NCBI GenBank assembly: GCA_963667255.1
Contig: OY762940.1
Coordinates: 416,001-480,000 of the forward strand
DNA length: 64,000 bases
Reading direction: 5' to 3'
Origin: Candidatus Cloacimonadota bacterium
Lineage (GTDB): Bacteria > Cloacimonadota > Cloacimonadia > G963667145
Shown piece after piece: positions 16,043-45,240 of this stretch; the stretch's first letter is position 1; each line of letters starts with the position of its first letter. Under the pieces are notes generated by a model. It searched no databases, was not told the origin of the DNA, and worked only from the letters and a program-made list of their open reading frames with translations. The position numbers and the translations under genes were made by a program.

Positions 16043-16044
16043 AA

Positions 16045-16097
16045 AATAAAAAAACCCATCGAGTAAGCTACATAAATGTAGCCCGACGGGTATGATA
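16045..16097 (-). ncRNA. Putative abiF-type structured RNA (antitoxin or leader) ending in a U-tract
   Basis: ACCCGUCG/CGAUGGGU stem plus inner GCUACA-UUUA-UGUAGC stem, followed by a U-run, lying between a promoter and the Abi ATG. Confidence 0.65.
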
Positions 16098-16149
16098 AGC
16101 ACAAATCATTCTTATCTTGCTTTGTGTCAACAAAAATCTTCATTATTCC

Positions 16150-28189: not shown

Positions 28190-28798
28190 TTACAGGCTTT
28201 CTATAATTTCGACATCTTCAGGGAAAGAAAGATTGAAAATAGAATCGTCCAAAAAATTCTTAAACCTCAAATCAGAAAATTCGTAAGATACGGAATTTTC
28301 CTCAAAATCGCAATATTTCACCTTGTTTATTTTCCCGTTTTTGATTCCGATTTCCACTTTGGCAATATTCTCATTTTTGGCTATATCTGGTGAAAAACTG
28401 TAAAAAATCTCCTCTTTTTGAGTAAATTTGCGGAAATTCTTAGCATTTTTCACAAATTTGGAGACCATCACATTAGGCCAAAAAACCAAAGTCGGAGCGG
28501 AAACAATCTTTTGATTACTCTTTTCGATATAAACTATCGACTGCAAAGTGTCGGCGTAAATCAATTGTTTGTCCGGCTTTTCATAATCAATCAAAAGTCT
28601 CTTGTTATCAAAAAAAATCTTTCCGACATAAACTTCTCTGCTTTTGGCAAGACTGACGAAATTTGTCTGCTTAATCTCTGCTTGAAACGCTTTTATCTGC
28701 AAGAATCCATCGACAGCCTTTTGCAACTCGCTCGGTATCTCTTCAGCCCAAAGAAGCCCGAAACACAAAAAAATAAAAACCCAAACTTTATTAAACAT
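28190..28798 (-). CDS. lolA: Outer-membrane lipoprotein carrier LolA-like
   Basis: Signal peptide, FQAEIKQ, IDYEKPDKQLIYAD; directly downstream of ftsK. Confidence 0.8.
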   Translation of the reverse strand: MFNKVWVFIFLCFGLLWAEEIPSELQKAVDGFLQIKAFQAEIKQTNFVSLAKSREVYVGKIFFDNKRLLIDYEKPDKQLIYADTLQSIVYIEKSNQKIVSAPTLVFWPNVMVSKFVKNAKNFRKFTQKEEIFYSFSPDIAKNENIAKVEIGIKNGKINKVKYCDFEENSVSYEFSDLRFKNFLDDSIFNLSFPEDVEIIESL

Positions 28799-31085
28799 AG
28801 CCCAAAATCCTCAACTCTTCTTCCGTCGCTCTCACTTCCCGCGGCTTGCTCCCCAGATGTGGTCCGATTATCCCCGCTTGCTCCAACAAATCGATTAATC
28901 TGCCCGCTCTGGCGTAACCTATTTTGAAATGCCTCTGCAGCATCGAAACCGAAGCCGTTTTGCTCTCAACGATAAACTTCGCTGCCTCCACAAATAGGTC
29001 ATCTTCCTGCTCAAAACCATTGCTTATAATGTCGGCTTCCTCGGTAAACAATTGCAAATTATCTTTCGGTTTCGGCTGAGTTTTCAGATACTCCACCACG
29101 CTCTCTATCTCCTCATCAGAGATATAAGCACCGTGAACCCTTATCACATCAGATTTCCCCGGAGCCAAAAACAACATATCGCCTCGTCCCAGCAATTTTT
29201 CCGCTCCATTAGCATCCAAGATAACGCGAGAATCTATTTTGGAGGAAACCCGAAAAGCTATTCGCGAAGGGAAATTCGCCTTAATGATACCGGTAATAAC
29301 TTGGGTTGACGGGCGTTGAGTCGCCAAAATCAGATGAAATCCCACAGCTCTACCCATCTGTGCCAAACGGGTAATCGGCTTTTCGATGTCCTTTCCTGCG
29401 GTCATTATCAAATCCGCAAATTCATCCACCACCAACACAATATACGGCAATTTCTTCACTCTCTCCGCTTCCGCCAGATGTCCCTGTTTCAGACCATCAA
29501 CTACTTTATTAAACGAAAACAAATCACGAACATTGTATTTTTGCAACAACATATACCGCTCATCCATCTCCTTCGCAGCCCAGTTCAAAGCTCCCAAACT
29601 ATCCTCAGGCAAAGTTATGATTTCGTGCAAAAGATGGGGGATATCCGCATAACCTGATAACTCAATTTTCTTTGGGTCTATCATTATCATCCGCATCTCG
29701 TCCGGCGTGAGATTAAACAGCAGAGAGTTTATTATCGTATTAATGCAAACACTTTTGCCCGAGCCGGTAGCACCAGCGATGAGCAAATGCGGTGTTTTGG
29801 ACAAATCGGTTACCACAGGATTTCCCACAATATCCACACCCAGAGCGATAGGCAAAAACATATTTTTTTTGTATCCCTCCAAAACTTTGCGGAGAGTAAT
29901 CGTCTCTATTTTCTCATTGGGAAGCTCTATGCCAATCTTGTCCTCGCCTGGAATAGGAGCTTGCACTCTTATGGAGAAGGCTCTCAACGCCAAAGAAAGG
30001 TCGTCTTGCAAAGAGATAAACCGACTAACCTTAACTCCGGGGGAGGGCTTCAACTCAAATTGCGTAATCACAGGTCCATAATTGACCCCGACAACCTTGG
30101 CTTCCACTCCGAACTCAGCCAATTTTTTCTCCAAAATAGAAGCAATTTTATCCGACCTGCTCTTCAATTTGGAGAGATTTTTCGCCGTTTCTACGGGAAC
30201 AGCTTTTAGAAAAACATCAACTCTCGGCAAAACAAATTTTTCAGTGCTGCTAACTTGTTGATTATGCTCTTTTTGTGAAGATGTTCCATGTGGAACAAAT
30301 TTTTCAGTATTTTTTGTATCAGACTTATTTTCCTTTATCTTATCATTCTTCGGTTCTTCTGGAAAAGCGAACTCTTCAAATACGCTTTCACTAACACCAT
30401 CAAACACAATTTCTCTCGTTTGCTCGGTAGTAAGTTCTTTTGGAGTTCTTTTAAAAATTCCCGAAAGAGTTTTTGGCGTATTTAACGGGTTTCCGAAACA
30501 GAATATCTTTTTAATCCAAACACAAATTTTTTCCGTTTCTTTGTATGTTTTGTTTATTCCTTTACCAATTGCTTCAAAAAAAGAGAAGATTTTGTTCAGT
30601 TCCAAAAACAAAACAAAGAAGAAACAAGAAACAAAAAAAGAGACGATTGCCGAACCGACTTTGCCAAGAACTTGCGAAAAGAAAGATAAATAGTTCTCAC
30701 CCAAAATTCCAACAGGGGAAGAGAAAGCATTCAGGTGAATGAGAAAAAAATAGAAGAAAGATGCAAACAGAAAAAAGCCGAAAAGTTTACTAACCCAAAG
30801 ACCTATTCGAACAGGCAAAAGCAAAATCAATCCCAAGAGAAAAAGAACGAAGCTGACCAAGTAAACAAAGTAGTTTCCAAAAATCAAATATCCCCAAAAA
30901 CTAATCACGAGACCAAAAACTCCTACGGGATTAGAAGTGACAACGCCAAACTTCTCACTGCCCTTTATGGAGGCAAAAGTCCGATAGTCAAAAAGCGTGT
31001 CCACATATCCGGCAGACAGAGCGATAAAAACAAGGGCGGAAAATAAAATAATTACTCCGCCCCAAAAAAATCTTCTTTTACTCAT
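28791..31085 (-). CDS. ftsK: DNA translocase FtsK
   Basis: N-terminal TMs, PHLLIAGATGSGKS, VDEFADL, ATQRPS, gamma domain IGYARAGR. Confidence 0.96.
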   Translation of the reverse strand: MSKRRFFWGGVIILFSALVFIALSAGYVDTLFDYRTFASIKGSEKFGVVTSNPVGVFGLVISFWGYLIFGNYFVYLVSFVLFLLGLILLLPVRIGLWVSKLFGFFLFASFFYFFLIHLNAFSSPVGILGENYLSFFSQVLGKVGSAIVSFFVSCFFFVLFLELNKIFSFFEAIGKGINKTYKETEKICVWIKKIFCFGNPLNTPKTLSGIFKRTPKELTTEQTREIVFDGVSESVFEEFAFPEEPKNDKIKENKSDTKNTEKFVPHGTSSQKEHNQQVSSTEKFVLPRVDVFLKAVPVETAKNLSKLKSRSDKIASILEKKLAEFGVEAKVVGVNYGPVITQFELKPSPGVKVSRFISLQDDLSLALRAFSIRVQAPIPGEDKIGIELPNEKIETITLRKVLEGYKKNMFLPIALGVDIVGNPVVTDLSKTPHLLIAGATGSGKSVCINTIINSLLFNLTPDEMRMIMIDPKKIELSGYADIPHLLHEIITLPEDSLGALNWAAKEMDERYMLLQKYNVRDLFSFNKVVDGLKQGHLAEAERVKKLPYIVLVVDEFADLIMTAGKDIEKPITRLAQMGRAVGFHLILATQRPSTQVITGIIKANFPSRIAFRVSSKIDSRVILDANGAEKLLGRGDMLFLAPGKSDVIRVHGAYISDEEIESVVEYLKTQPKPKDNLQLFTEEADIISNGFEQEDDLFVEAAKFIVESKTASVSMLQRHFKIGYARAGRLIDLLEQAGIIGPHLGSKPREVRATEEELRILGYV
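30282..30297. promoter_or_regulatory. parS centromere-like site inside the ftsK linker
   Basis: TGTTCCATGTGGAACA, 15/16 match to the palindrome TGTTCCACGTGGAACA. Confidence 0.8.
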
Positions 31086-31111
31086 TATAAACCAAACTCT
31101 CCTAACAGCTC

Positions 31112-32185
31112 TTAAACATTAAATCTAAAATTGATAATATCTCCATCCTTGACCACATACTCTTTTCCCTCCAGACGCAAAAGTCCTTTACTCTTGGCAA
31201 CAAACATAGAGCCACACTCCTTGAAATCGGTAAACGAAATGGTCTCGGCTCTAATAAACCCTCTCTGAATATCGGAATGAATTTTGCCCGCAGCCTCGGG
31301 AGCAAGAGTCCCGTTTTTGATAGTCCAAGCTCGCACTTCCTTTTCTCCAGCTGTAAGGAAGCTAATCAAATTCAGAAGCTTGTAACTGCTAAGCACAATT
31401 TTATCCAAACCAGACTTGTCCAAACCCATATCTTGCAAAAATTCCGCCTTGTCTTCCAGTTGAGCAATTTCGTTCTCTATCTCCGCAGAAATCATCACCA
31501 CTTGGTCATCGCCAACCTCTTTCTCCAAATCTCGCACAAATTCGTTACCGCTCAAAATATCCTCTTCTCCCACATTTGCCACATACAACACCGGTTTGTA
31601 GCTGAGAAGATTCAAATTTTTGACCTCTTCTCGCTCATCATCGGAAAAAGCAATCTCTCTTATCGATTTGCCCTCATCCAATTGTGCGGACAGCCTCTCC
31701 AGCAAATCCACTCTCTTGGCAATAGTTTTGTCCGCCTTCAGCTGCTTTTTCGCCTTCTCAATCTGCCTCTCCAAAAACTGTTGGTCGGCAATCATCAGTT
31801 CCAGATTAATCGTCTGCACATCTCCCACAGGGTCAACTTTCCCATTCACATGAATAATCTTGTCGTTCTCAAAACATCTGACCAAATGCACTATCGCCGC
31901 AACCTCTCGAATGTTCGCCAAAAATTTATTCCCAAGACCTTCTCCTTGAGAAGCACCTTTTACCAAACCTGCAATATCGTAAAACTCAATGGAAGTATAA
32001 ACCTTAGATTTGGAATTGTAAAAATTCTCCAAAAATTCCAATCTCTCGTCAGGAACAGACACCACTCCGACATTCGGCTCTATTGTGCAAAACGGGTAAT
32101 TAGCTGACTCTGCTCCCGCACAAGTTATAGCATTAAATAGGGTGCTTTTCCCAACATTCGGCAATCCGACAATTCCTAATTTCAT
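31112..32185 (-). CDS. ychF: Redox-regulated ATPase YchF
   Basis: GLPNVGKST, NYPFCTIEPN, DIAGLV, GFIRAE. Confidence 0.96.
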   Translation of the reverse strand: MKLGIVGLPNVGKSTLFNAITCAGAESANYPFCTIEPNVGVVSVPDERLEFLENFYNSKSKVYTSIEFYDIAGLVKGASQGEGLGNKFLANIREVAAIVHLVRCFENDKIIHVNGKVDPVGDVQTINLELMIADQQFLERQIEKAKKQLKADKTIAKRVDLLERLSAQLDEGKSIREIAFSDDEREEVKNLNLLSYKPVLYVANVGEEDILSGNEFVRDLEKEVGDDQVVMISAEIENEIAQLEDKAEFLQDMGLDKSGLDKIVLSSYKLLNLISFLTAGEKEVRAWTIKNGTLAPEAAGKIHSDIQRGFIRAETISFTDFKECGSMFVAKSKGLLRLEGKEYVVKDGDIINFRFNV

Positions 32186-32337
32186 GATCTATCTTAATCC
32201 TAATTCTCAATATTTGATACAGGCAATCAAAAAATAAAACAAGCAATGTCAACCAAATTTACTGAAAATCAAAATTTCCTTGACATAAGAACAAAATTCT
32301 ATCCCTAATACTGAAAAACCTTTCTTTAGGAGATATT

Positions 32338-32880
32338 ATGCAAATAAGTATGACAGCCAGACACTTCGAGTTAACAGATTCAGTTAAGGACTTTATCAAC
32401 ACAACCTGCGAACACTTTTCGCTCTATTTCGAAAACATCATTGATGTGAAAGTAATCTTGGATTACAATAGCTCCAAAACAAACAATTTGTCTGTTTCCA
32501 TCAGTGTTCACTCTTCTGGAAACGATTTCAGAGCGGAAACCGAGGATGACGATTTGTTTAAAGCCGTAGACCTCTGTGCTCAAAAGATAGAAAGCCAACT
32601 TAAAAAAGAAAGAAAAAAAGAGATTAGCAATCATAAAAACAAAAGTAAAAACTATTCCAAAAGGTCAAAAAGTTTACTATTCAAAAAAGGTCGTGGCGAC
32701 GAAAACAAAATTGAATTGGAAGAAAATATCTTCTTCAGCACTCCTATGGAAACCGACGATGCCATAAAACACATGGAAGAGAACGATTTGAACTACTTCG
32801 TTTATAGAAATACAAAATCCGAAAAAGTTGATACTATCATCAAAATTGATGATGAACATTACAAAATAATCGAAGCTTAA
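32338..32880 (+). CDS. hpf: Ribosome hibernation promoting factor (long form)
   Basis: MQISMTARHFELT...DLFKAVD...C-terminal PMETDDAI..YFVYRN. Confidence 0.85.
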   Translation: MQISMTARHFELTDSVKDFINTTCEHFSLYFENIIDVKVILDYNSSKTNNLSVSISVHSSGNDFRAETEDDDLFKAVDLCAQKIESQLKKERKKEISNHKNKSKNYSKRSKSLLFKKGRGDENKIELEENIFFSTPMETDDAIKHMEENDLNYFVYRNTKSEKVDTIIKIDDEHYKIIEA

Positions 32881-32900
32881 ATTTTTCTCTATCTAATTTA

Positions 32901-33839
32901 ATGAAAAAACTTACCTCTCAAGAACTTTTTGATTTACTGGGAAAAGACCAAATCCTCAGCAAGATAACTGACGAAAAGACTTTTTCCACTGTAATCACTA
33001 ACCCGTATATCAACCGACCGGGGCTCGCTCTTGCCGGATATTTTGAAAGGTTTTCGTATGATCGTGTGCAGATTTTGGGCGACCCCGAAGTTGGCTATAT
33101 CCAAAGTTGTGCCAAAGACAAAATGTATGACATCCTTAAAAAAATGTTCACTTACAACATTCCTTGTCTGTTTTTTTGCAAAGGCAACACCGTCCCGAGT
33201 TACATTACCATTTTGGCAAACGAATCCAATATCCCTATTATCCAAACTCCCACTTCTACGGACAACCTGCTAAGTTTGCTCTCGCAACAGCTGGGAATAT
33301 TCTTCAGCCCTCGCACTATCGAACATTCCACTTTCCTTGATATCTATGGTGCCGGAGTGCTTATTACTGGTAAAAGCGGAGTGGGGAAAAGCGAGAGTGC
33401 TTTGGACTTGATAGAGAGAGGTCATCGACTCATCTGCGACGACTCCACCAGTATCTCCAAAATGCCCAACGGTTCACTGCTTGGCACATCTACGAGGGAA
33501 GACAGCTCTTTCATGGAGATAAGAGGTATCGGGATAGTCGATATTCAAAAAATGTTCGGGATACAAGCCATCAAGAAAAAGAAAAGCTTGGATATGATTA
33601 TCGAGCTTGTCCCGTATAATGTAAACAAAAATTACGATTCGATAAACACTGAGAGGCTGGATAATAAAAAATTTAGAAGTATTTTGCAAACGCCCGTTCC
33701 GCTTTTTCAACTTCCAGTTTCTCCTGGTAAAAATATGTCAATCCTCATAGAGACAGCTGTGCTCAACTTCCTCTCGATTTCTATGGGCTACGATGCGGCT
33801 AAGACCTATATAGAAAAACAAAAGAAATTTTTTAAATAA
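32901..33839 (+). CDS. hprK: HPr kinase/phosphorylase
   Basis: RPGLALAG, GKSGVGKSE, DD, EIRGIGI, PGKN. Confidence 0.95.
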   Translation: MKKLTSQELFDLLGKDQILSKITDEKTFSTVITNPYINRPGLALAGYFERFSYDRVQILGDPEVGYIQSCAKDKMYDILKKMFTYNIPCLFFCKGNTVPSYITILANESNIPIIQTPTSTDNLLSLLSQQLGIFFSPRTIEHSTFLDIYGAGVLITGKSGVGKSESALDLIERGHRLICDDSTSISKMPNGSLLGTSTREDSSFMEIRGIGIVDIQKMFGIQAIKKKKSLDMIIELVPYNVNKNYDSINTERLDNKKFRSILQTPVPLFQLPVSPGKNMSILIETAVLNFLSISMGYDAAKTYIEKQKKFFK

Positions 33840-33841
33840 TT

Positions 33842-34114
33842 ATGATTTCCAAAACAGTAACTATAAGCAACAAATCTGGCATTCATGCCAGACCGGCACA
33901 GCTGATTGTCCAAACAGCAGAGGAGTTCTCTTCTGAAATTTTTTTGGAGAAAATCGACGAGGGATTTAAGGCAAACGCCAAAAGTATCTTCAATGTGATG
34001 GCAATGGCAGGAGAATGTGGCGACAATATTCAGATTACCACCAACGGTGATGACGAAGACGAGGCTCTGGAAGCGATGTTAGATTTATTCGACAGAAATT
34101 TTACCAATGAGTAA
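33842..34114 (+). CDS. ptsH: Phosphocarrier protein HPr
   Basis: GIHARPA (His15), NAKSI (Ser46). Confidence 0.95.
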   Translation: MISKTVTISNKSGIHARPAQLIVQTAEEFSSEIFLEKIDEGFKANAKSIFNVMAMAGECGDNIQITTNGDDEDEALEAMLDLFDRNFTNE

Positions 34115-35735
34115 GACAATAGAAAATGCCGGCTTTCCCCTTTGCGAAGGATGTGTGATAGGCAAAACGCTTAAAATAAGCGATGCCAAAAATCCCTATG
34201 AAAATAAATCCATCAAAAAAGAGGAAATCGAACAAGAGTTGCAACGACTGGAAAATTCGCTCGTTAAAGCCAATGAGGATATAGACAATACTCTGGAAAA
34301 TATCTCCTCGGAGAATAACAATCTCAACGAAATTATAAAAATTCACAAATCTATTTTGAACGACCCGGAGATTAAAAAAGGAATTATTGACCTCATAAAA
34401 AACAAATTGCACTCTATGGAACACGCTATCAATCAAAAATTTATGGAAATTGAAAACAGTTTTGCTACCATAAAAAACCCATATTTAAAAGAAAGAGTCA
34501 ACGATTATGTTTTTGTTAAAAACACACTTATCAATAAACCTGCGAAAAAAGAAGAGGGAGAAATAAACGAGCCGACCATTTTACTGATGAAAGATATCTC
34601 GCCAGAGCAAGTTATAAGATATCATAACAACAAAAACATTTTGGGAATTTGCCTCAAACACGGAAGCAGAACTTCCCACGCATCAATCATCATAAAATCA
34701 CTCAATCTGCCTGCCATTATAGAAACTTCTACAAACTACAAAAGCATCCCAAACAATAAATTGGTGGTTTTCAATTCGTATGAGAACAAACTGGTAATAA
34801 ATCCAGAAAAATCTGACATAATTGAATGCGACAGAATAATAGAAAAAGAACAAGAAAATTTGAATAAATTGCAAGAATTGGTAAAAAAACCGGCGATTAC
34901 CAAAAGTGGAAAACGCATAAAATTGAGAGCCAATCTGGAGTTTGAAGAAGAAATCCCTTTGGCAATAAAAAACGGTGCTGAAGGCGTTGGACTGTTAAGA
35001 ACAGAGATGTTTTATCTCAACCGTAAAATGTTACCGAGCAAAGAGGAACAATTTACCTATTACAAAAAAATCGTCTCCTCTTTTGAAAACAGCGTTACCA
35101 TCAGAACTTTGGATTTAGGTGGAGACAAAAACACTCTTCTGCTTAAAACAAAAAAAGAGGAAAACCCAAATCTTGGACTTAGAGGAATAAGGTTTTCGCT
35201 ATCAAAGCCGGAAATCTTCGTAGAGCAGTTGGAAGCTATTTTAATGGCATCAACTTATGGGAAAATAAAAATTTTACTCCCGATGGTTTCAAAAATAGAA
35301 GAGGTCCGCGAAACCAAAAAAATCTTAGATAATTGCAAAAAAAAACTAAGAGAAAAGAATATTCCTTTTGATAATAATATTCAATTAGGAGTTATGATAG
35401 AAGTGCCTTCGGCGGTCTTTGAAGTAGAATCTTTTGCTAAGGAATGCGATTTTTTTAGTATAGGAACAAACGATTTGACACAATATATTATGGCTATAGA
35501 TAGAAACAACGACCATGTGAAAGATTACTATGATGAAACAAATCCTGCAGTTTTAACCGCACTAAAAATAGTGGTAGATGGAGCCAAAAAACACAATAAA
35601 ACCGTTTCTCTCTGCGGAGAAATAGCATCAAATCCAGAGAAATTGAAAACTTTTATTGAATTAGATGTTGACGAAGTTAGCGTAAGCACAAGTTCATTAT
35701 TAAAAATAAAAGAAAAGATAATAAACTACAGATGA
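34107..35735 (+). CDS. ptsI: PTS enzyme I
   Basis: RTSHASI, GLLRTE, RTLDLGGDK, ENPNLGLRGIR, SIGTNDL, CGE. Confidence 0.95.
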   Translation: MSKTIENAGFPLCEGCVIGKTLKISDAKNPYENKSIKKEEIEQELQRLENSLVKANEDIDNTLENISSENNNLNEIIKIHKSILNDPEIKKGIIDLIKNKLHSMEHAINQKFMEIENSFATIKNPYLKERVNDYVFVKNTLINKPAKKEEGEINEPTILLMKDISPEQVIRYHNNKNILGICLKHGSRTSHASIIIKSLNLPAIIETSTNYKSIPNNKLVVFNSYENKLVINPEKSDIIECDRIIEKEQENLNKLQELVKKPAITKSGKRIKLRANLEFEEEIPLAIKNGAEGVGLLRTEMFYLNRKMLPSKEEQFTYYKKIVSSFENSVTIRTLDLGGDKNTLLLKTKKEENPNLGLRGIRFSLSKPEIFVEQLEAILMASTYGKIKILLPMVSKIEEVRETKKILDNCKKKLREKNIPFDNNIQLGVMIEVPSAVFEVESFAKECDFFSIGTNDLTQYIMAIDRNNDHVKDYYDETNPAVLTALKIVVDGAKKHNKTVSLCGEIASNPEKLKTFIELDVDEVSVSTSSLLKIKEKIINYR

Positions 35736-35977
35736 TAATTTTAATAAAACTAATAGATTTATACTCTTTGCTCATAGTCGTCAGAGCTGTTATTTCTTGG
35801 ATTAGCACTCCTACAAATAGCACTATTTATTACTATATCTATAAACTAACCGAACCTATGCTGGCCAAATTAAGATTTATCTCTTTGCGACTCAATTTAC
35901 CTTTCGATATCTCTCCAATAATTGTTCTTCTTGCCCTTAATTATATTAAAAAATTTTTGATTACCTATCATGTCTAA
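35732..35977 (+). CDS. YggT family membrane protein
   Basis: RAVISW...LTEPML...DISPII. Confidence 0.85.
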   Translation: MIILIKLIDLYSLLIVVRAVISWISTPTNSTIYYYIYKLTEPMLAKLRFISLRLNLPFDISPIIVLLALNYIKKFLITYHV

Positions 35978-36458
35978 AATAAAAAAGAGTTTTGCATTCA
36001 TTGTTCTATTACTAATTATTGCTGACCAGATTACCAAATATTTGGCATTGACTTTTTATAAAGAAATAGGTTTTTACTCATACTCTATCGTGGATGACTT
36101 TTTAAAGTTCACTTTTGCTAAAAATTTTGGTGCGGCTTTTTCTCTCGCTTTTTTTAAAAATAGCACCGCTAATAACTACTTTTTTATTTTTATAACAACC
36201 ATTGCAATTTTAATAATAGTTAAAATTTTAATAAAAACAGAAAAAAAACTGGAAATAGTAAGTTATTTTTTAATAATAGGCGGAGCTGTAGGAAATTTGA
36301 TAGATAGGGTAATCCACGGGTTTGTTATAGATTTTATTGATTGCGATTTTCCCGATATTATTATAGAAAGATGGCCGGTATTTAACTTAGCTGATTCCTA
36401 TATCTGCATTGCCATTTGCATTCTTATTATCCAATCCGTAAAGGTAGTAAAAAAATGA
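35970..36458 (+). CDS. lspA: Signal peptidase II
   Basis: DQITK, NFGAAFS, GAVGNLIDR, VIDFI, VFNLAD. Confidence 0.95.
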   Translation: MSKIKKSFAFIVLLLIIADQITKYLALTFYKEIGFYSYSIVDDFLKFTFAKNFGAAFSLAFFKNSTANNYFFIFITTIAILIIVKILIKTEKKLEIVSYFLIIGGAVGNLIDRVIHGFVIDFIDCDFPDIIIERWPVFNLADSYICIAICILIIQSVKVVKK

Positions 36459-36724
36459 AAAAAAACATAATTCCTAATAGTAAGACAGATTTTGCAAAAT
36501 TTGTCGCAAAAAGTGCCATAAATCTAATCTTAAGCGATAAGAATAATAAACAAGCTATGGAAAATTACCAATTAAAATTAAACTACGAAAAAAAACTCTT
36601 AAAAATAGATAAAAAAATAAACGAATTAAATTATAAAATAAAATCACTAAAAAATAAACTTTTTCTTATATTTATTGTTATGATAGTTGCTATTTTATAT
36701 TTTTCCGGAATAATTATTAAGTGA
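36455..36724 (+). CDS. Small hypothetical coiled-coil protein with C-terminal TM helix
   Basis: ATG overlaps the lspA stop; ends just before the dnaA SD. Confidence 0.55.
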   Translation: MKKNIIPNSKTDFAKFVAKSAINLILSDKNNKQAMENYQLKLNYEKKLLKIDKKINELNYKIKSLKNKLFLIFIVMIVAILYFSGIIIK

Positions 36725-36732
36725 GGTAAAAA

Positions 36733-38064
36733 ATGAATTCTTTAGACCAAGATATATGGGACAATATTCTAAATAAATTAGAAGAATCCATTAATGAACA
36801 GAGTTTCAACACTTTTTTCAAATATACTAACTTAATAGAGTTAAAAGAGAATGAGTTATCCATAGAGGTTGAAACAGACTTTGCTGCAGGATTTTTAAAC
36901 CAAAATTATGCAAAAACAGCAGAAGAGATAGCGTGGCAACTCTATGAAAAAAAATATAAAATAAGATTTTATGGAAAAAACAGACAAATATCTGTCGAAA
37001 AGAAAGAAGAAGAAAAAAACCAAATGACCACTAAAATAAAATTGAATGATAGGTTCACTTTTGACCAATTTGTTGTGGGTAAAAATAATAATTTTGCGTA
37101 TTCCGCTGCCTACGGCGTTTCAGAAAACCCGGGAACAAAATATAATCCACTATTTATTTATGGAAACTCTGGTATGGGAAAAACACACCTTATGCAAGCT
37201 ATTGGACACTATATACAAAATTGTTCCATAAAAAAGAAGGTTATTTACACAACATCCGAAAATTTTACAAACGAGTTAATACAATCTATTCAAACAAAAA
37301 CCACAGAAAGCTTTAGAAATAGTTATAGAAATGTTGATGTTCTCTTGATAGACGACATCCAATTTTTTAAACGGAAAGAATCATCTCAAGAAGAATTTTT
37401 TAGCACTTTTAATATTTTATATAATAACCAGAAACAAATAGTTATTACCAGTGATAAACCTCCAAAAGATTTGGATGGAATAGAAAAAAGATTGGTTAGT
37501 AGATTTGAGGGTGGTTTGACTGTGGATATATCTATCCCCGACTACGAAACTAGAGTAGCTATTGTAGAAAATAAAATAAAGAGAGATGGCACAAAATTAT
37601 CAAAAGAAGTAGTAAATTTTATTTGTGAAAACATCGTCGATAATATTAGATCACTCGAAGGAGCTATAACAAAATTATTAGCCTATTCATCTTTCCATAA
37701 TATCCAAACCGAAGAAATAGAAATAAACCTTGCAAAAGATATATTATCTTCGCTCATATCCAAAAAAATAGAAGCTTTAACTTTAGATAATATAAAAGAT
37801 AAAATATGTGAAAAATATAAAATAAGCAGTAAGGATATCTTTTCAAAAACAAAGAGAAAAGACATAGTATTCCCAAGACAAATCGGAATGTATTTATCAA
37901 ATTTCTTAATCCCACAATTAGCGTTAATTAACATAGCACAATATTATAAAAGAAAAGACCACTCAACCGTAATAAATGCACGAAGATTAATACAAAATAA
38001 AATGAAAGAAGATAAATCATTTTACTTAGAAATACAAAAACTTATAGAAAATATAAAATACTAA
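36733..38064 (+). CDS. dnaA: Chromosomal replication initiator DnaA
   Basis: YNPLFIYGNSGMGKTHL, LLIDDIQF, RLVSRF, NIRSLEGA, KDHSTV. Confidence 0.97.
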   Translation: MNSLDQDIWDNILNKLEESINEQSFNTFFKYTNLIELKENELSIEVETDFAAGFLNQNYAKTAEEIAWQLYEKKYKIRFYGKNRQISVEKKEEEKNQMTTKIKLNDRFTFDQFVVGKNNNFAYSAAYGVSENPGTKYNPLFIYGNSGMGKTHLMQAIGHYIQNCSIKKKVIYTTSENFTNELIQSIQTKTTESFRNSYRNVDVLLIDDIQFFKRKESSQEEFFSTFNILYNNQKQIVITSDKPPKDLDGIEKRLVSRFEGGLTVDISIPDYETRVAIVENKIKRDGTKLSKEVVNFICENIVDNIRSLEGAITKLLAYSSFHNIQTEEIEINLAKDILSSLISKKIEALTLDNIKDKICEKYKISSKDIFSKTKRKDIVFPRQIGMYLSNFLIPQLALINIAQYYKRKDHSTVINARRLIQNKMKEDKSFYLEIQKLIENIKY

Positions 38065-38250
38065 TAAACAATCAGTGCATAATAAAAAGGAAACATAAAG
38101 TAATACACAAAAACTAAATAAAAAAGAAAAAAATAAAACTAAAACCAAACAATTAATAAACAAAATATAATAAACCTAACTATCTTTTAAAAAAGAAAAT
38201 ATATATAATAAACACAAAAAAACAAAATCTACTACAACGATAAATTTAAA
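38062..38250. other. Putative oriC (A-rich DnaA-box variants followed by trio-like repeats)
   Basis: TAATA(A/C)AC(A/C) at 38062, 38101, 38154, 38168 and 38206; AGTGCATAA at 38074; CTA-CTA-CAA-CGA at 38229-38240; near the change in codon strand bias. Confidence 0.6.
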
Positions 38251-38268
38251 TAATAAGGTAAATAATAA

Positions 38269-39036
38269 ATGAAGAAACTCTGCATATTAATTTTAATAAT
38301 CTGTATAATAGGATGTAAAAAAAAAAAAGACATCGTGGCAAAAGTTAATAACTATATTCTAACACAAGAAAATCTAAAAACCTTAAATGTAACACAAAAA
38401 AACAAGAAAGAGTTTGTAACAGAATGGATTAACTTAAAACTATTAGCTTGCTCTATAGAAAACAATGAGCTTATTAATCTTAAAAAAGAAAACTATGAAA
38501 CTAAATTAAAAGCAAACATTTATATATCTAAATTATTAGAAAGTGAAAATATAGATAAAGATGAGCTATTAGAATATTATAATGCGAATTACCAAAATTT
38601 TTATAAAGAGATAACCAAATATAAATTTCAAAAAATATATTTATCAAATAAAAAAAACAAAGATAATTTAGTTAAAGAATTAAGTAAAATAAGCGGAATA
38701 ACATTCAGTGAATTAGCTAAAAAATATTCAGAAGAATTGTATGGAAAAAATGGAGGATATACCGGCTTTGTGGATAAAGAAAGTATAAGACCTCTTGTTT
38801 GGGATAAATTAACTAACTCTGAAATAGGAAAGTATTATTGGATTGATGTTCCCGAAGGCTATGTAATAGGAAGATGGTATGAAAAGAAAGATTTTAAAAT
38901 ACAATTAGGTTTCGAACAAGTAAAAAACGATATAATAAAAATTTTAAAAAAAGAGGATAGAAAAAAAATAATAGAAAAAGAGCTACAAAGATTAAGAAAA
39001 ATAAATAAAGTAGAAATTAATTTAGATTATAATTAA
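38269..39036 (+). CDS. PpiC/parvulin-like foldase lipoprotein
   Basis: Lipobox IIGC, IVAKVN, FSELAKKYSE...KNGGYTGF. Confidence 0.75.
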   Translation: MKKLCILILIICIIGCKKKKDIVAKVNNYILTQENLKTLNVTQKNKKEFVTEWINLKLLACSIENNELINLKKENYETKLKANIYISKLLESENIDKDELLEYYNANYQNFYKEITKYKFQKIYLSNKKNKDNLVKELSKISGITFSELAKKYSEELYGKNGGYTGFVDKESIRPLVWDKLTNSEIGKYYWIDVPEGYVIGRWYEKKDFKIQLGFEQVKNDIIKILKKEDRKKIIEKELQRLRKINKVEINLDYN

Positions 39037-39046
39037 GGGAGAAAAA

Positions 39047-39370
39047 ATGAATAATATTTTTTTAGCACAAGAGAATCTTTTAGGTTCACTATTACCATTT
39101 ATTTTAATGATAGTGATAATTTGGTTTTTAATAATAAGACCACAAAAAAAGAGACAAAAAGAACATAAAAATATGTTGGAAAATCTCAAAACAGGAGATA
39201 AAGTAATAACAAATGGTGGAATGCAAGGAATAATATCTAAAATAAATGTAGAGAAAAACTTAGTTTCTATAAAAGTAGCAGATAATATAAAAATAGATTT
39301 TCTTATATCTTCCATCGCAACCAAAATATTAGACAAAAAAGTAGATGATAAAGAAGAAAAAAAGTTTTAA
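39047..39370 (+). CDS. yajC: Preprotein translocase subunit YajC
   Basis: FLIIRPQKKR...LKTGDKVITNGGMQG. Confidence 0.93.
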   Translation: MNNIFLAQENLLGSLLPFILMIVIIWFLIIRPQKKRQKEHKNMLENLKTGDKVITNGGMQGIISKINVEKNLVSIKVADNIKIDFLISSIATKILDKKVDDKEEKKF

Positions 39371-39860
39371 TATTAGCTTATTAGGGAAAAAAGAACTAAA
39401 AAAAATAAGCGAAGAAATTATAGAAATAAGCGAAAATATAAAAGATTTGGCTATGGATATGGCTAATACTATGTATTCAAGTAATGGAGTTGGCTTAGCT
39501 GCTCCACAAATCGGAAAAAATTTGCGTATTTTCGTTATAGATACTTCTAAAAAGAAAAATGATTTGAAAATTTTTATAAATCCTAAAATCATAAGCATGA
39601 AAGGTATGGAAATAAACGAGGAAGGTTGCATTAGTATTCCTGGTATTTATGCCGAAGTTCCCAGAGCGACAGAAGTGGAAATTGAAGCTTTTGACGTGGA
39701 TGGCAAAAAGTTTAAATTAAAAGCAGAAGGCTTGCTCGCTATAGCTATCCAACATGAAAATGACCATCTTAATGGGAAACTCTTTATAGATTATTTAAGT
39801 AAAACGAAACTCTTAGAATTAAAAAGCGAATTAGATAAAATAAAATGCAAAGAAAATTAA
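39345..39860 (+). CDS. def: Peptide deformylase
   Basis: GVGLAAPQIG, EGCIS, QHENDHLNG. Confidence 0.95.
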   Translation: MIKKKKSFNISLLGKKELKKISEEIIEISENIKDLAMDMANTMYSSNGVGLAAPQIGKNLRIFVIDTSKKKNDLKIFINPKIISMKGMEINEEGCISIPGIYAEVPRATEVEIEAFDVDGKKFKLKAEGLLAIAIQHENDHLNGKLFIDYLSKTKLLELKSELDKIKCKEN

Positions 39861-40369
39861 AATCTATAAAATTATTGGTTTCCGATTGTGATGGAGTGTT
39901 GACAAATGGCTTATATTATTATGGATTACAAGATTTAACTGTTAAAACCTTCCATACTCAAGACGGTTTAGGAATAAATATGTTCCAAAATTTTGGCTAC
40001 AAATTTGCTGTGATAACCGGAAAAACAAGTGTGGCTTTACAACAAAGATGTGAAGATATTGGGGTTAAATATCTATATCAAAAAATAAAAAATAAGGTTG
40101 AAATATTAGATAGTCTACGGATAAAACTGAATTTAGATTGGGAAAATATAGCTTATATTGGTGATGATTTAAACGACTTAAAGTGCATAGAATTATCGGG
40201 ATTTACTGCTTGTCCGGCTGATTCAAACAAAAAAATTCTGAATACGGTTGATTTCGTTTGTTCCAAAGCCGGTGGTTATGGTTGCGTGCGAGAAGTTATT
40301 GATTTTATTCTGGAAGAAAAAAAAGAATTGGCAGATGCTCAAAATAAATTTATCGAAAGTCTGTCTTAG
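39845..40369 (+). CDS. kdsC: KDO 8-phosphate phosphatase (HAD family)
   Basis: DCDGVLT, DGLG, ITGK, YIGDDLND, GGYGCVRE. Confidence 0.9.
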   Translation: MQRKLKSIKLLVSDCDGVLTNGLYYYGLQDLTVKTFHTQDGLGINMFQNFGYKFAVITGKTSVALQQRCEDIGVKYLYQKIKNKVEILDSLRIKLNLDWENIAYIGDDLNDLKCIELSGFTACPADSNKKILNTVDFVCSKAGGYGCVREVIDFILEEKKELADAQNKFIESLS

Positions 40370-40898
40370 TTTTTTTATACTATTTATGCTTGTTTCTTGT
40401 GTAAAAGGCGAAGACATCCTTGATAAAGGGAAGAAGTTTTTTGATAAAGAGGATTTGCCGGAAAAAACAAGCGATACTGTTTCACTGGTCTCTATGGAAG
40501 AGGATAAAATAAAGTGGTTTCTGAAAGCTGATCATATTAAAGAGTTTGCTAAGAAGAAAAAAATATATGCCAAAAAAATGACAATCTATGTTTTTGATGT
40601 TGATGACAATATAGTTTCCACAATGACAGCTGATAGTGCCAAAATAGACGAAGTAACTAAAATGCTTAAAGCTGAAAGTAATGTTAAAATATTGAGTTCT
40701 AATGGGGTTTTGGAAACCTCTATACTTTACTGGAATCTGGCAAATAACAGCATTTTTACCAAAGAAAAAGTGAAAATAACTCGTGGCGAAAATGTTATGT
40801 ATGGGCAAAATTTATATACAGATGTTGCTTTAAATTCGGCTAAATTAGACGATATTAAGGGAGAGGGAGAGGTTGAAGAAAATAGTATTGCTTTCTAA
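40335..40898 (+). CDS. lptC: LPS export protein LptC
   Basis: Position kdsC-X-lptA-lptB; ADSA...V...LETSILYWN; start codon uncertain. Confidence 0.75.
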   Translation: MLKINLSKVCLSFFILFMLVSCVKGEDILDKGKKFFDKEDLPEKTSDTVSLVSMEEDKIKWFLKADHIKEFAKKKKIYAKKMTIYVFDVDDNIVSTMTADSAKIDEVTKMLKAESNVKILSSNGVLETSILYWNLANNSIFTKEKVKITRGENVMYGQNLYTDVALNSAKLDDIKGEGEVEENSIAF

Positions 40899-41991
40899 TT
40901 TTTTTTTGTTTGTTATTATTTCCTGCCTTTTCGGGACAAAGATAAAAAGCATTGAGGAACGAACTGTAAAAAAAAGTTCGAAAAACTATAAGATAATTAA
41001 TTCGGATGTCCTCAATTTAAAAAAAGATGGAAACGAAATTATCTCTCAAATGAGAGGTAATGTGCATTTTTTTTACGATAATATAGAGTTTTTTAGTGAT
41101 GAAGCGGAGATATATGAGAAACAGCAAAAAGTTAAACTGATAAAAAATGTGATAATTAAGCAAGATACGATTACCGTGAAAGCGGAAGATGTTACTTATT
41201 TAAAAGAGCTAAACAAAATAATTCTCACGGAAAATGTATTTATCAAAATTGATTGCAAAAGTAGTAAAACTATAAAAACCTTTTCTTGTCAAACAGCGGA
41301 AATAGACAGAAAAAGTGGCGATTTGAAAGCGGATAAGGATGTTAGGGTTTTTGACGAATCACGAAAAGTGAAGGTTTTTTGTGGTAAGATGCGTTATAAT
41401 ATGCATACGCGAAAAGGTTATTTGGTCGATAATCCCGAGATTTTTTCGGTTGATGATGATTCTACAAAGTTGATTGCTCAGAAGATAGATATATTGGATG
41501 GTCAAAATAAAATAAAAGCTATTTACGGAGTGAAGACGATTTCGGCAAATCATCAGACCGAAAGTGAGGAGTTGGTGTTTCTAAATGAGGAAAAAAAGAT
41601 AATTATGCTGGGAGAGCCAAAGTTTTATTCCAAAAAATTGTATGCGGAAGCTAAGAGGTTCTATTTTTATTCCGATATGTCTTTTAAAAATATAGAAAAA
41701 ATAGTTCTTGAGGAAGATTGTGAGGTTGATTTTCCGAGTGAAGAGGGCAAAGCTTTTGACAATCATTTGGTTTCTGGTAGAGTTAACTTGAACTTCACGG
41801 ACTCAAATCTAAAGAATGTTGTGGCTACGGAGAAAGTGGCGTTGAGCTTGATTAACGAAGATTCAACGGGGGTGTCGGTAAACAAGATTTACGGAGATAC
41901 TTTGTTTTTGCGGTTTAATGATGAAAAAAGATTGGAATATATGACTATGAAAAGTCAGAGGGTTAACGGAGTTTTTAAATTTAAGAATTAA
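40873..41991 (+). CDS. OstA/LptA-like multi-jellyroll protein
   Basis: Repeated GNV/ENV beta-jellyroll motifs; directly upstream of lptB. Confidence 0.7.
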   Translation: MKKIVLLSNFFLFVIISCLFGTKIKSIEERTVKKSSKNYKIINSDVLNLKKDGNEIISQMRGNVHFFYDNIEFFSDEAEIYEKQQKVKLIKNVIIKQDTITVKAEDVTYLKELNKIILTENVFIKIDCKSSKTIKTFSCQTAEIDRKSGDLKADKDVRVFDESRKVKVFCGKMRYNMHTRKGYLVDNPEIFSVDDDSTKLIAQKIDILDGQNKIKAIYGVKTISANHQTESEELVFLNEEKKIIMLGEPKFYSKKLYAEAKRFYFYSDMSFKNIEKIVLEEDCEVDFPSEEGKAFDNHLVSGRVNLNFTDSNLKNVVATEKVALSLINEDSTGVSVNKIYGDTLFLRFNDEKRLEYMTMKSQRVNGVFKFKN

Positions 41992-41993
41992 TA

Positions 41994-42740
41994 ATGAAGA
42001 ACGAAATAGAAATCAAAAATATTGTGAAATACTATGGCTCTAAGTTGGTGTTGCGAGACATAAATGTGAAGATAACACAGGGAGAGTGCGTGGGAATAAT
42101 GGGTCCGAACGGAGCCGGTAAATCAACGACTTTTTATATTGTGCTTGGACTTATCAAAGCGACCGCAGGGCAAGTTTTGTTCAATGGTAAGTTGATTAAT
42201 AATTTACCGATGTATAAAAGAGCAAGATTAGGTATTGGTTATCTTGCTCAGCAACCGTCTATTTTTCACAATCTTACTGTGGAACAAAATGTTATGGCAA
42301 TTTTAGAGATGCTAAAGATTTCTAAAGTGGAAAAAAGAAGACGGTTGGATGAACTTTTGGCTGATTTGGATTTGACCAAATTGAGCAAGCAAAAGGCTTA
42401 TACGCTATCGGGCGGAGAGAGGCGAAAATTGGAAATTACCAGATCGCTAGTAACAAATCCTTCGTTTTTGCTTTTAGACGAACCATTTGCCGGAGTTGAC
42501 CCTAAAGCTGTGGAAGATATACAAAAAATTATCAAGAAATTGGGCGAAAAAAACATCGGAGTTCTGATAACAGACCACAATGTGATAGAAACTCTGAAGA
42601 TTGTGCAAAGGGCTTACATTGTGTTTAATGGAGAGATTCTATTTTCCGGAACATCAGCGGAGCTTGTAAACGACAAAAGAGCCAGAGAGGTTTATTTGGG
42701 GAACAGCTTTATGCAGCACAATTTTAGCGAACAAAATTAA
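41994..42740 (+). CDS. lptB: LPS export ABC ATPase
   Basis: GPNGAGKS, PMYKRARLGIGYL, LSGGERR, DEPFAGVDP, ITDHNV. Confidence 0.96.
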   Translation: MKNEIEIKNIVKYYGSKLVLRDINVKITQGECVGIMGPNGAGKSTTFYIVLGLIKATAGQVLFNGKLINNLPMYKRARLGIGYLAQQPSIFHNLTVEQNVMAILEMLKISKVEKRRRLDELLADLDLTKLSKQKAYTLSGGERRKLEITRSLVTNPSFLLLDEPFAGVDPKAVEDIQKIIKKLGEKNIGVLITDHNVIETLKIVQRAYIVFNGEILFSGTSAELVNDKRAREVYLGNSFMQHNFSEQN

Positions 42741-42749
42741 GAAGAGATT

Positions 42750-44120
42750 ATGGAAGTTATAGTTGCGGGATATAATGTTGATGCGGAAGTGATAAGGAAA
42801 TGCACCAAAGGTGCTACTCCGGAGACGATTTCGGCTGCGTATGCCAGAATTAGCAGAAGCAAAGATTCCGTGGAAAAATTGCGTGCTGAAGCTATCTTGG
42901 ATGTGGAAAAAGCCAAAGATTCCAACACGAGCATCGTCTTTGAAATGGGTCATTCGTCCATCGCCGAGCATGTGATTTTCAACTTTGATTTAATAGGGAT
43001 TTCGCGATATTTGGCGGAGTTTATCCATCGGAGCAGGTTAGCCTCTTTTACGGAAAAATCCCAACGATATGTAACCTTGGACGGCGATTTCTATCTGCCG
43101 GAAGAGGTAAGAAACAGTAAATTGAGAGAAGATTTTGAGCAAGTGATTTCCGAGCAAAATTCGTTGTATGAGTTGTTGTTTGCCAAAGCGAAAGAGAAGT
43201 TGGAAGCGGACGGCTTCGCAGGGAGTAAAAGAGATAGATTTAGTAAGGCGAAAGAGGACGCGCGCTATTTTTTGTCGCTATCCACTTTGACACAGATGGG
43301 AATCACGATTAACGCTAGAAGTTTGCAAAAGCTTTTGGTTCGCTTGGATAAATCGGATTTGCATGAAGCCAAAAAGCTAAAGAAGAAACTGGAAGAAGAA
43401 GCCAAGAAAATAGCACCGTCTTTGATTCGCTATACAGATGCGGACGATTTTACTCGATTTACTTGGGAACTTCCTGAAAATAAAGAGATTAGACCGAGCG
43501 AGAAGGTTAAACTTATCAACGCATCCGACAATCCTGACGACTTGGTTTTGCAGGGGATGTTGGTCGATTTCGGCTATCCGTATGAGCAGGTTTCCGACTA
43601 TTTGTCAAAAATAACATCGCAAGAGAAAGAGCAGATTTTTGATGCTTTATTCGCAAAAGGCAAGCTTTACTCCTCTATGCCAAGAGGGTTTGAATTAGCC
43701 GATTTTCTTTTTGAGGTTTGCTGTTCTGCGTGTTGCTTCGGACAGATGAAAAGACATCGCATGTCCACGATACTCAAATCTGAATATCACCCCGACTACG
43801 GGTTTGTTGTTCCGGAGTTGATCAAGGCTTTGGGCGAAGAAGAGAAAATTGACGAAGTTATTAAGCGGACAAACGATTTATATTTTGAGTTGGAAAAAGA
43901 GAAAAAAGGATTGGGAAATTACATCTTGACTAATGCTCACAACACTTTGATTTTATTCAAGGGTAACTTGCGTGAAATTTACCATTTTTCTCGACTGCGT
44001 GCTGACGAACATGCTCAGTGGGAGATAAGAGAGATTGCTAATAAAATCGACGAAATTGTGCGAGAGGTTGCTCCTTTGGCGGGTAAATTTTTAGGGGGGA
44101 AAAGTGAAATATTTAGTTAA
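42750..44120 (+). CDS. thyX: FAD-dependent thymidylate synthase, tandem two-domain form
   Basis: GHSSIAEH, SFTEKSQRY, EDARYFL, second repeat KRHRM...HAQWEIR. Confidence 0.88.
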   Translation: MEVIVAGYNVDAEVIRKCTKGATPETISAAYARISRSKDSVEKLRAEAILDVEKAKDSNTSIVFEMGHSSIAEHVIFNFDLIGISRYLAEFIHRSRLASFTEKSQRYVTLDGDFYLPEEVRNSKLREDFEQVISEQNSLYELLFAKAKEKLEADGFAGSKRDRFSKAKEDARYFLSLSTLTQMGITINARSLQKLLVRLDKSDLHEAKKLKKKLEEEAKKIAPSLIRYTDADDFTRFTWELPENKEIRPSEKVKLINASDNPDDLVLQGMLVDFGYPYEQVSDYLSKITSQEKEQIFDALFAKGKLYSSMPRGFELADFLFEVCCSACCFGQMKRHRMSTILKSEYHPDYGFVVPELIKALGEEEKIDEVIKRTNDLYFELEKEKKGLGNYILTNAHNTLILFKGNLREIYHFSRLRADEHAQWEIREIANKIDEIVREVAPLAGKFLGGKSEIFS

Positions 44121-45240
44121 GACAAGTTTAATTTTTGTTGTGATTTTGCTGTTTGCGTGTAACAAAGATATTACGAAAGGCAAATACGAAAATGTTTCCG
44201 AGCGAATTAACAGTGACCAAAATATGTTTCAAGGAAATTTGAAAAGAAACGGAGTTTATCAGACGAATGGTCTCGAAAAAAAGTGCCCAAATGTTGTGAA
44301 ATGGCGATTTTCTTTGGAAGCCAAGATTTACTCTTCCCCTATGTATTATGACAATAAGATTATAGTTAACGATTATGGCAACTATATAACGGCGATAAAT
44401 TATGTTACCGGAGAGAGCGAGTGGATATTCAAAACTCGTAACAGAAATACAACAAGTGTAGCTGTTGCCAATAATGTGGTGTATTTTGGTAGTTATGACA
44501 AATATTTTTATGCTCTGAACGCTTCTAATGGGGCTCTTATCTGGAAATACAAAGTGGAAGGATACATCACTTCGTCTGCTGCGGTTTATGGTGGAATTGT
44601 GTATTTTGGCAGTTGGGACGGATATTTTTATGCCTTGAATTGTAAGAACGGAGAGTTGATTTGGAAAATCAAGATTGGCGACAGAGTTTATACTCCTCCT
44701 GCTATTGACGAAGAAAACAAACTGGTTTTTTACGGAGATAGAGCGTTGTATGCCAGCGATTTGAAGACAGGGAAATTGAAGTGGAAATTTTCCACAGGCA
44801 ATTTTATAGAATCCGCTCCTGTCGTAGATGGAGACAATGTATATTTTGGCAGTAGAGACTACTATATGTATTGTGTGAACAAAAAAACCGGAGACGAGAA
44901 GTGGAAATTCAAGACTGGCTATTGGGTTACCGGCTCGCCGTCTGTTTGCGGAGACAAATTGATTTTCGGTTCTTACGACGATTGCATTTATATTTTAAAG
45001 AAAAAAAGTGGAGAGCTTTTCAAGAAAATCAATAGTGGCAGTGATGTTCAACTTCCGGCTATTGTCGTGGGGCATAACGCTTATTTGCTCAATGTAGAAG
45101 GCGGTTTTGCGGCGATAGATGTTGGTTTGGGCAAAATTATCTGGCGAAAAAGGTTCAACAATAAGAGCTCTCTGCCCTTAATTCATGAGGGAAATCTTAT
45201 CATTGTGCATGACGAAACGCTTTTGAAACTGGGTTATTAA
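44104..45240 (+). CDS. PQQ-like beta-propeller repeat lipoprotein (BamB-like)
   Basis: Lipobox LFAC; repeated VYFGSxDxYxYALNxxxGxxxWK. Confidence 0.85.

Follow-up and report, generated by a model that had tools for sequence, protein, structure and literature searches.

A graded GC trough across core genes at the predicted replication origin of a Cloacimonadota genus, a probable long-term mutational footprint

Results

A kilobase-scale GC trough centred at dnaA and the predicted origin

In the genome of a Candidatus Cloacimonadota bacterium, a trough of low GC runs through about 6-8 kb of core genes, dnaA among them, around the predicted replication origin (oriC), and we regard it as the long-term mutational footprint of that origin with a probability of roughly 0.8, taken across three variants of this reading. 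The window analysed is the whole stretch of 64,000 nucleotides at G000:C1:416,001-480,000, where G000 is the source genome, a single 1,587,896-bp contig with a GC of 0.393 and a clean two-replichore skew; positions are those of the window unless prefixed otherwise. The genus comparison comprised G000 and five other genomes of the same genus, each a single contig, giving six related and non-independent genomes, and the wider comparison took in six genomes of the families f2 and f4, and 31 genomes for the counts of repair genes.

The GC per kb fell from 0.416 (33-34 kb) to 0.213 (38-39 kb) and recovered to 0.395 (42-43 kb), and the GC at third codon positions (GC3) dropped smoothly from ~0.5 to 0.16 across intact core genes, the series from hprK to thyX being 0.47, 0.46, 0.34, 0.30, 0.26, 0.19, 0.23, 0.17, 0.16, 0.25, 0.23, 0.29, 0.35, 0.40 and 0.46. 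A real and graded trough had been claimed in a preliminary description made from the letters alone, and its spot counts were exact (11/60 GC and 39/60 A at 38941-39000, versus 34/60 GC at 7561-7620). Over 33,602 synonymous sites pooled from the six genomes, a Gaussian trough gained 565 log-likelihood (lnL) units over no trough. Compared with strand-matched references, the Gaussian centred 378 bp left of the DnaA-trio-like repeat was the best shape and the exponential, triangular and box shapes were worse, the box by 55 lnL; GC3 was graded over about ten genes, and the tails extended to ~33.5 and ~42 kb. The centre position was taken from the per-genome profile ranges (-1100 to +300 bp) together with the pooled fit, and the resulting ~37,850 is the 3′ end of dnaA beside the predicted oriC, two places which the fit does not separate.

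The genes with the deepest GC3 lie just downstream of dnaA, so that the earlier wording of an A-rich trough centred on dnaA is right for the low GC and has to be amended for both its base and its centre. The fourfold A/(A+T) inside the trough was 0.39-0.57, slightly up on the right side, that is, A about equals T and the trough is AT-rich rather than specifically A-rich; the visible A-richness comes mostly from Lys, Ile and Asn codons of genes all lying on the plus strand, plus the A-rich origin gap. The described shift in codon use and protein composition was confirmed in the genes shared with G001, as in the trough versus the rest ATA made up 0.56 versus 0.24 of Ile codons, TTA 0.50 versus 0.10 of Leu codons and AAA 0.87 versus 0.67 of Lys codons, with Lys, Ile and Asn together at 0.33 versus 0.21.

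By raw GC, five other 5-kb windows of G000 were equal or lower, which by reading of their proteins appear to be accessory islands (polysaccharide/glycosyltransferase, CRISPR-cas, and rich in insertion sequences). By GC3 over the 1,100 genes shared with G001, the origin window (0.221) was the third-lowest distinct 5-kb region against a mean of 0.437 for 2,547 windows, with only cas and glycosyltransferase islands lower and the next region above at 0.252. At the 100-kb scale, GC3 peaked near the origin (0.49-0.50) and was at its minimum near the terminus (0.42-0.43), in agreement with the usual terminal AT enrichment stated in the preliminary description and discussed in PMC2617782; on a scale of kilobases, the trough thus runs counter to that trend within a narrow zone.

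The predicted origin and its DnaA elements

The fourfold G/(G+C) of plus-strand genes rose from 0.29 on the left to 0.51 on the right of the predicted oriC, with the skew change point at -200 to +800 bp in the pooled data and at -700 to +1800 bp in single genomes; the raw cumulative skew minimum lay 3.5 kb to the left, on a plateau. The intergenic gap predicted as oriC contains the most A-rich 150-bp window of the genome, and its trio-like repeat (Table 1) occupied the same place in all six genus genomes as well as in G006, G010 and G022. In the genus, the CTA/NTN repeats stood 1,429-1,501 bp past the dnaA start in 6/6 genomes and counted at least three trios, as defined for an oriC of the Bacillus subtilis type. 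The trough centre was about 1 kb or less from both the trio motif and the skew switch, and the origin location assumed earlier is thus supported by skew switch and trio-like repeats alike.

No DnaA box with at most two mismatches was found within 16 bp of the trios, the nearest elements in G000 differing from the Escherichia coli consensus at three or more positions; these degenerate elements at 38206..38224, standing where other families have near-canonical boxes, are read here as putative divergent DnaA boxes. Strict DnaA boxes within 1.5 kb of dnaA numbered 0-2 in the genus versus 5-8 in f2/f4. The residue equivalent to E. coli His439, a base-contact position (PMC5043019) in the C-terminal part of DnaA (about 37,950-38,000), was Asn throughout the genus (6/6 genomes); of 24 other genomes, 22 had His and two had Tyr. 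The scarcity of canonical boxes and the Asn at this position possibly point to a change of box specificity. Where other families carry an intergenic box cluster upstream of dnaA, this genus has an open reading frame (ORF).

Several other signals were sought around the origin. No conserved parS was detected near the origin or at the zone centre in the six genus genomes, using the canonical consensus, which may miss non-canonical parS, and parB lay ~485 kb from the origin. One parS-like palindrome was seen at 30282-30297 inside ftsK, 7.9 kb left of the origin, in G000 only (1/6 genomes). GATC did not cluster around oriC; it was under-represented inside the zone in 6/6 genomes, at near outside levels. 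The top origin-specific 8-mers had small counts and were read as shared coding sequence, so they were set aside with no clear motif.

At the opposite end of the chromosome, dnaG (G000:C1:1,218,071), the gene for uracil-DNA glycosylase (UDG; 1,236,672) and polA (1,242,281) all lay within 20 kb of the terminus (skew maximum 1,224,616), and the three genes also stood roughly across from dnaA in G002 and G004; in G008, dnaG was ~97 kb from dnaA. That a low dosage of these three genes at initiation might be a factor is speculative.

Vertical inheritance of the trough within the genus

The same gene order and the same V-shaped GC3 trough, offset from each genome's own background, were present throughout the genus (6/6 genomes). 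Trees from the proteins of the trough and of the flanks had an identical topology (two non-orthologous genes dropped), and the DnaA proteins of the genus formed one clade nested in the class, in a tree built by a quick method and with long outgroup branches. The trough is thus vertically inherited in core genes, and transfer and assembly error are both unlikely. A low-GC acquired island was rejected on the graded edges, the synteny in 6/6 genomes, the concordant trees and the lack of mobility marks, in line with the dismissal of horizontal transfer in the preliminary description; a plasmid origin of DnaA was rejected as well, the best plasmid match (44%) being below the best class relative (53%; class range 42-53%). 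None of the three outcomes that had been named there as speaking against it was found, namely clustering of trough genes with a distant low-GC donor, a chimeric join, or similar troughs at unrelated core loci.

In the six f2/f4 genomes the foldase, yajC and def genes also stand a few kb downstream of dnaA, at background GC3 and with no trough visible, as exemplified by G010 (dnaA 0.50, yajC 0.48, def 0.49). Since these families share the linkage but have a background GC3, the effect belongs to the place in this lineage and not to the genes. Five f3 genomes had a GC of 0.28-0.31 in the dnaA region. Loci L020-L023 and L028 of f3 and L010 of f4 had a GC of 0.28-0.32 in the dnaA region and a dnaA GC3 of 0.22-0.30, which either a trough or a low-GC genome would fit.

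One contig covered 28,500-41,927 with 0 differences, though it may derive from the source sample. In contigs of two sequencing runs (X1 and X2), 28,500-41,700 was invariant and variants occurred solely from 41.7 kb rightwards, such contigs dropping rare variants and so being uninformative on polymorphism. The stretch of ~41,700-44,300 (lptB-thyX) showed dense variants and contig breaks in both runs, resembling a recombined stretch that segregates in the population sampled. No strain-level relative turned up among 43 metagenome loci, whose identity was 32-46% throughout.

Model estimates of a raised loss of G:C with unchanged gain

Fourfold distances were higher in the trough than in the flanks in 3/3 independent species pairs (ratios 1.35, 1.41 and 1.41). 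Rates were estimated by a two-state tree model with branch-specific rates and 63 reference genes, 43 on the leading and 20 on the lagging strand, drawn from 82 six-way orthologues, leaving out genes of more than 1,500 codons or with changed orientation; its intervals assume that sites are independent, and saturation affects the sites in part. Compared with the flanks, the 637 trough sites had G/C>A/T raised 2.34-fold (2.12-2.59) and A/T>G/C at 1.00 (0.90-1.16), and under this fixed-root model a pure selection or gene-conversion shift was 24 lnL worse. With a free root state the estimates were 1.73 and 1.10, an A/T>G/C of 0.63 was 14 lnL worse, and the ancestral trough was already deep (root shift -2.06). 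Both sets of true values were recovered in 60 simulations per model. Gene by gene, G/C>A/T was 1.8-3.4 in the nine genes from yggT to lptC (14-230 sites each), whereas among 40 reference genes the 95th percentile was 1.40 and the highest value 2.14. A<>T exchange was not clearly raised (1.08, 0.61-1.49); in the four-state fit the lagging-strand reference reported no convergence. At twofold sites, transitions were raised in the trough. Under these models, the raised G/C>A/T with an unchanged A/T>G/C would fit a local mutational hot zone, and would fit selection or lost GC-biased conversion poorly.

G and C both dropped on both sides of the origin, as 47 of the 48 class-by-side-by-genome shifts were negative. 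Twofold cytosine loss was 2.93-fold on the leading-strand template and 1.65-fold on the lagging-strand template (likelihood-ratio test, 31), while splitting it by base or by side gave nothing significant. This twofold mirror image about the origin would point to replication and not transcription.

Genes and other features of the window

The gene order through the region is hpf, hprK, ptsH, ptsI, yggT, lspA, an orphan ORF, dnaA, the 204-bp gap, foldase, yajC, def, kdsC, lptC, an LptA-like gene, lptB and thyX (Table 1). The names given earlier to lspA, dnaA, yajC, def and kdsC all scored above NCBIfam cut-offs, and the foldase had a weak rotamase match. The true start of lptC is probably downstream of 40248. 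The orphan ORF, kept in 6/6 genus genomes at 43-80% identity, had no family in NCBIfam or Pfam and no Atlas match at or above 0.9; from its residues it appears to hold a coiled-coil-like stretch and a hydrophobic C-terminus.

Table 1. Features of the trough and the predicted origin, in window positions
Feature	Position	Strand	Remarks
GC trough, full width at half depth	34830..40870	no strand	Gaussian fit: centre ~37,850, sigma 2.57 kb, depth 1.15 log-odds
ptsI, left shoulder of trough	34107..35735	+	GC3 0.34
yggT-family gene	35732..35977	+	GC3 0.30
lspA	35970..36458	+	NCBIfam; GC3 0.26
Orphan 89-aa ORF, directly upstream of dnaA	36455..36724	+	GC3 0.19
dnaA	36733..38064	+	NCBIfam; GC3 0.23
Predicted oriC, intergenic after dnaA	38065..38268	no strand	129/204 A (63%), only 10 G
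Two candidate degenerate DnaA boxes ending ACA	38206..38224	+	14 and 4 bp before the trios
DnaA-trio-like repeat CTA CTA CAA	38229..38239	+	Motif definition from PMC8287927
PpiC/PrsA-like foldase lipoprotein	38269..39036	+	Weak rotamase match; GC3 0.17
yajC	39047..39370	+	NCBIfam; GC3 0.16, lowest of 1,080 shared genes of at least 80 codons
def, peptide deformylase	39345..39860	+	NCBIfam; GC3 0.25
kdsC	39845..40369	+	NCBIfam; GC3 0.23
lptC and LptA/OstA-like gene, right shoulder	40248..41991	+	GC3 0.29 and 0.35

Scans of the window gave no tRNA and no Rfam match, no integrase was among the scanned genes, and the repeats at 33-43 kb were short and of low complexity only. Two single low-GC genes, one of the Abi_2 family at 15134-16102 (GC3 0.30) and one with a weak pentapeptide-repeat match at 21465-23372 (GC3 0.23), have sharp edges and a patchy distribution as ordinary inserts do, unlike the graded trough. 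Elsewhere in the genome, the cas and glycosyltransferase islands (G000:C1:827,500-834,300 and 717,400-734,000) had a GC3 of ~0.2 in both G000 and G001 despite a fourfold divergence of 40-50%, so that these islands are not ameliorating at the genome-average rate. Three ORFs of ~33 kb flank the origin on the leading strands (G000:C1:377,030-410,773 on the minus strand; 491,876-525,049 and 526,084-558,840 on the plus strand), ~70% identical to those of G001 and with a GC3 of 0.35-0.41.

Discussion

The kilobase-scale trough at dnaA and oriC is best read as a footprint of mutation accumulated at the origin over a long time. As its cause we favour, at slightly less than even odds, a prolonged single-stranded exposure of both strands at initiation together with cytosine deamination. 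Helicase unwinding ahead of priming may create the exposure, so that both strands would be single-stranded unusually long over a few kilobases at the start of replication; exposed cytosines would deaminate and G:C would change to A:T about twice as fast as elsewhere, upon which synonymous sites would drift to a lower equilibrium and proteins would follow toward Lys, Ile and Asn. We infer from the rate estimates mutation rather than fixation bias, and cytosine deamination as the lesion. The single-strand reading is preferred because it accounts for the direction of the shift, for its centring and graded decay, and for the mirror signal at twofold sites, and cytosine deamination on a single-stranded template is the standard account of GC skew and replication strand bias (PMC6263442). 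A bolder form is tentative and rather doubtful, namely that initiation itself is focally mutagenic, with a multi-kb bubble which, in lineages whose origin opens well ahead of replisome assembly, deaminates cytosines on both strands, has doubled G:C>A:T in dnaA and its neighbours and has eroded its own DnaA boxes, while His439 of DnaA turned to Asn alongside.

A number of observations weigh against exposure and deamination, or against a mutational cause altogether. The f2 and f4 families lack the trough although they share the origin architecture, and no genus-specific cause emerged, as none of the tested repair and replication genes was missing (UDG, mutS and parB genes in 31/31 genomes; dciA, dnaN, dnaG and polA in 5/5). 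The mirror image is incomplete, for the fourfold G loss was about equal on the left and right (mean log-odds -1.16 and -0.96), and inside the trough the usual strand asymmetry of the fourfold G/(G+C) persists; an added strand-blind rate, as from blocked repair, also gives a larger fold change on the normally protected strand, within the intervals. A 12-rate spectrum fit gave implausible and unstable rates, and transitions are therefore not separable from transversions. The separation of mutation from fixation bias depends solely on a model fitted to divergent sites, with 0.7-2.4 substitutions per fourfold site, and a general 1.5-fold rate rise with selection for AT, which is unlikely, would sit at the edge of the A<>T interval. 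In the G000-G001 pair analysis, the low-GC islands were raised in G/C>A/T as well (1.45 versus ~0.67), with A/T>G/C lower (0.34 versus ~0.5). Mutation-accumulation lines of E. coli show reduced rates over ~200 kb around the origin, in 100-kb bins (PMC6606806).

Some of these points would be met by repair occlusion, the main rival and one of the candidate processes of the preliminary description, in which a nucleoprotein at oriC (spreading DnaA, ParB/SMC or a nucleoid protein) keeps UDG or other base excision repair away from double-stranded DNA and makes a hot zone with no extra single-stranded DNA. It predicts raised G/C>A/T with unchanged A/T>G/C just as estimated, so that it fits the rates equally; its added strand-blind rate lies within the intervals of all four strand classes, the ~6-kb Gaussian resembles protein spreading, and the UDG, MutS and ParB genes are in place throughout. 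However, an anchor for such a complex is wanting, since no conserved canonical parS is near the origin, parB is far off, GATC is not enriched and box-like motifs are not in excess in the coding part, and we consider occlusion possible but unlikely. An error-prone first synthesis, with the first kilobases made by Pol I or a translesion enzyme or with skewed deoxynucleotide (dNTP/dUTP) pools at initiation, would likewise give a graded decay on both sides of oriC; polA is present and such synthesis is described beside human origins, but C>T is depleted and AT>GC raised there, the opposite pattern (PMC9645720). With polymerase error one would moreover expect a rise in A/T>G/C as well, and the mutS gene is there, which leaves this explanation quite improbable.

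Selection for AT-rich, meltable or bendable DNA near oriC, also proposed at the outset, or a local loss of GC-biased conversion, either possibly with a general rate rise, could have kept a trough that was deep before the genus diversified; for the AT-rich terminus of E. coli, a proposed cause is low recombination together with lost GC-biased conversion (PMC2617782), and in Caulobacter the GapR protein is able to move to AT-rich DNA at Cori and parB (PMC5587793). Yet both predict an A/T>G/C of ~0.6, while 1.0-1.1 was estimated and the pure model was 14-24 lnL worse; synonymous divergence is up and not down, and the twofold shift differs by template strand. A-tracts and box-like motifs in the coding trough were in no excess over 300 codon shuffles per genome, the A6/T6 tracts being at the shuffle expectation in 6/6 genomes except for an A6 deficit in G004. 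Because A/T>G/C is unsuppressed and tracts and boxes are not in excess, selection for meltability or bending is disfavoured, and we hold selection or lost conversion to be improbable; of the two classes once offered together, an origin-localised mutational process is the one supported. A cause unrelated to the origin (transfer from a low-GC donor, an assembly chimera, or genes of intrinsically low GC3 owing to expression or head-on transcription) is very improbable and largely refuted. The genome does hold several equally low-GC islands and some highly conserved short genes with low GC3, and transcription in the left half of the trough is head-on; against this, the graded edges run through genes, trough and flank trees agree with DnaA nested in the class, the dnaA-foldase-yajC-def linkage is common to other families at background GC3, and one contig, possibly from the source sample, runs across 28,500-41,927 with no difference. 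Lagging-strand reference genes were not depleted, and 51 highly conserved short genes had a GC3 of 0.41 with low divergence.

A conserved 6-kb zone with an about doubled G:C loss on oriC and dnaA would be a bacterial counterpart of the focal mutagenesis at human origins and, if the footprint is what we take it for, starting replication would damage the DNA right beside the origin. If focal mutagenesis is true, the width and depth of the trough could serve as a genomic read-out of initiation kinetics in uncultured bacteria. The trough is also a caution that low GC and odd codon use at dnaA should not be read as a sign of horizontal transfer, and that origin genes distort phylogenies as well as estimates of divergence.

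The usual view of low substitution rates near the origin, with AT-richness marking the terminus, comes from bins of 10-100 kb (PMC7851589 and PMC6606806), and older reports of compositional change around origins are mentioned in PMC7851589. Our literature search, outside which most subscription papers and supplements lay, yielded papers on origin unwinding elements, the terminus, GC skew and the 100-kb wave only, and no description of a kilobase-scale GC trough through core genes at oriC. Replication-linked mutational heterogeneity is already known; new here are that the two rates are told apart, with G/C>A/T raised and A/T>G/C unchanged, and that lineages of a single class are contrasted.

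Among known systems, GC skew from deamination (PMC6263442) shares a G:C>A:T bias that follows the geometry of replication and forms a mirror image about oriC, but it is replichore-wide and mainly on the lagging-strand template, whereas here an added excess falls within about ±3 kb, on both strands, and lowers the total GC. The AT-rich, fast-diverging terminus (PMC2617782) likewise combines lower GC and higher divergence of core genes at a replication landmark; it is about a megabase wide, while the present zone is ~6 kb at the origin and lacks the A/T>G/C drop expected from lost conversion. The E. coli mutation-rate wave, symmetric about oriC, shares a position-dependent rate tied to the origin, but it was seen in 100-kb bins of mismatch-repair mutants and is reduced near the origin, and a 6-kb peak would be invisible at that resolution (PMC6606806). 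The basal unwinding system (BUS) of B. subtilis (PMC8287927) resembles the present origin in that trio-like repeats follow dnaA and are preceded, at 4 and 14 bp, by elements of box length, though a DNA unwinding element (DUE) or BUS spans tens of bases and not kilobases of coding DNA, and this genus has no canonical boxes beside the trios. Efficient human origins (PMC9645720) offer the likeness of focal, initiation-linked mutagenesis with a strand bias inverting at the origin; they are eukaryotic, with C>T depleted and AT>GC raised, whereas only the loss of G/C is raised at the Cloacimonadota origin.

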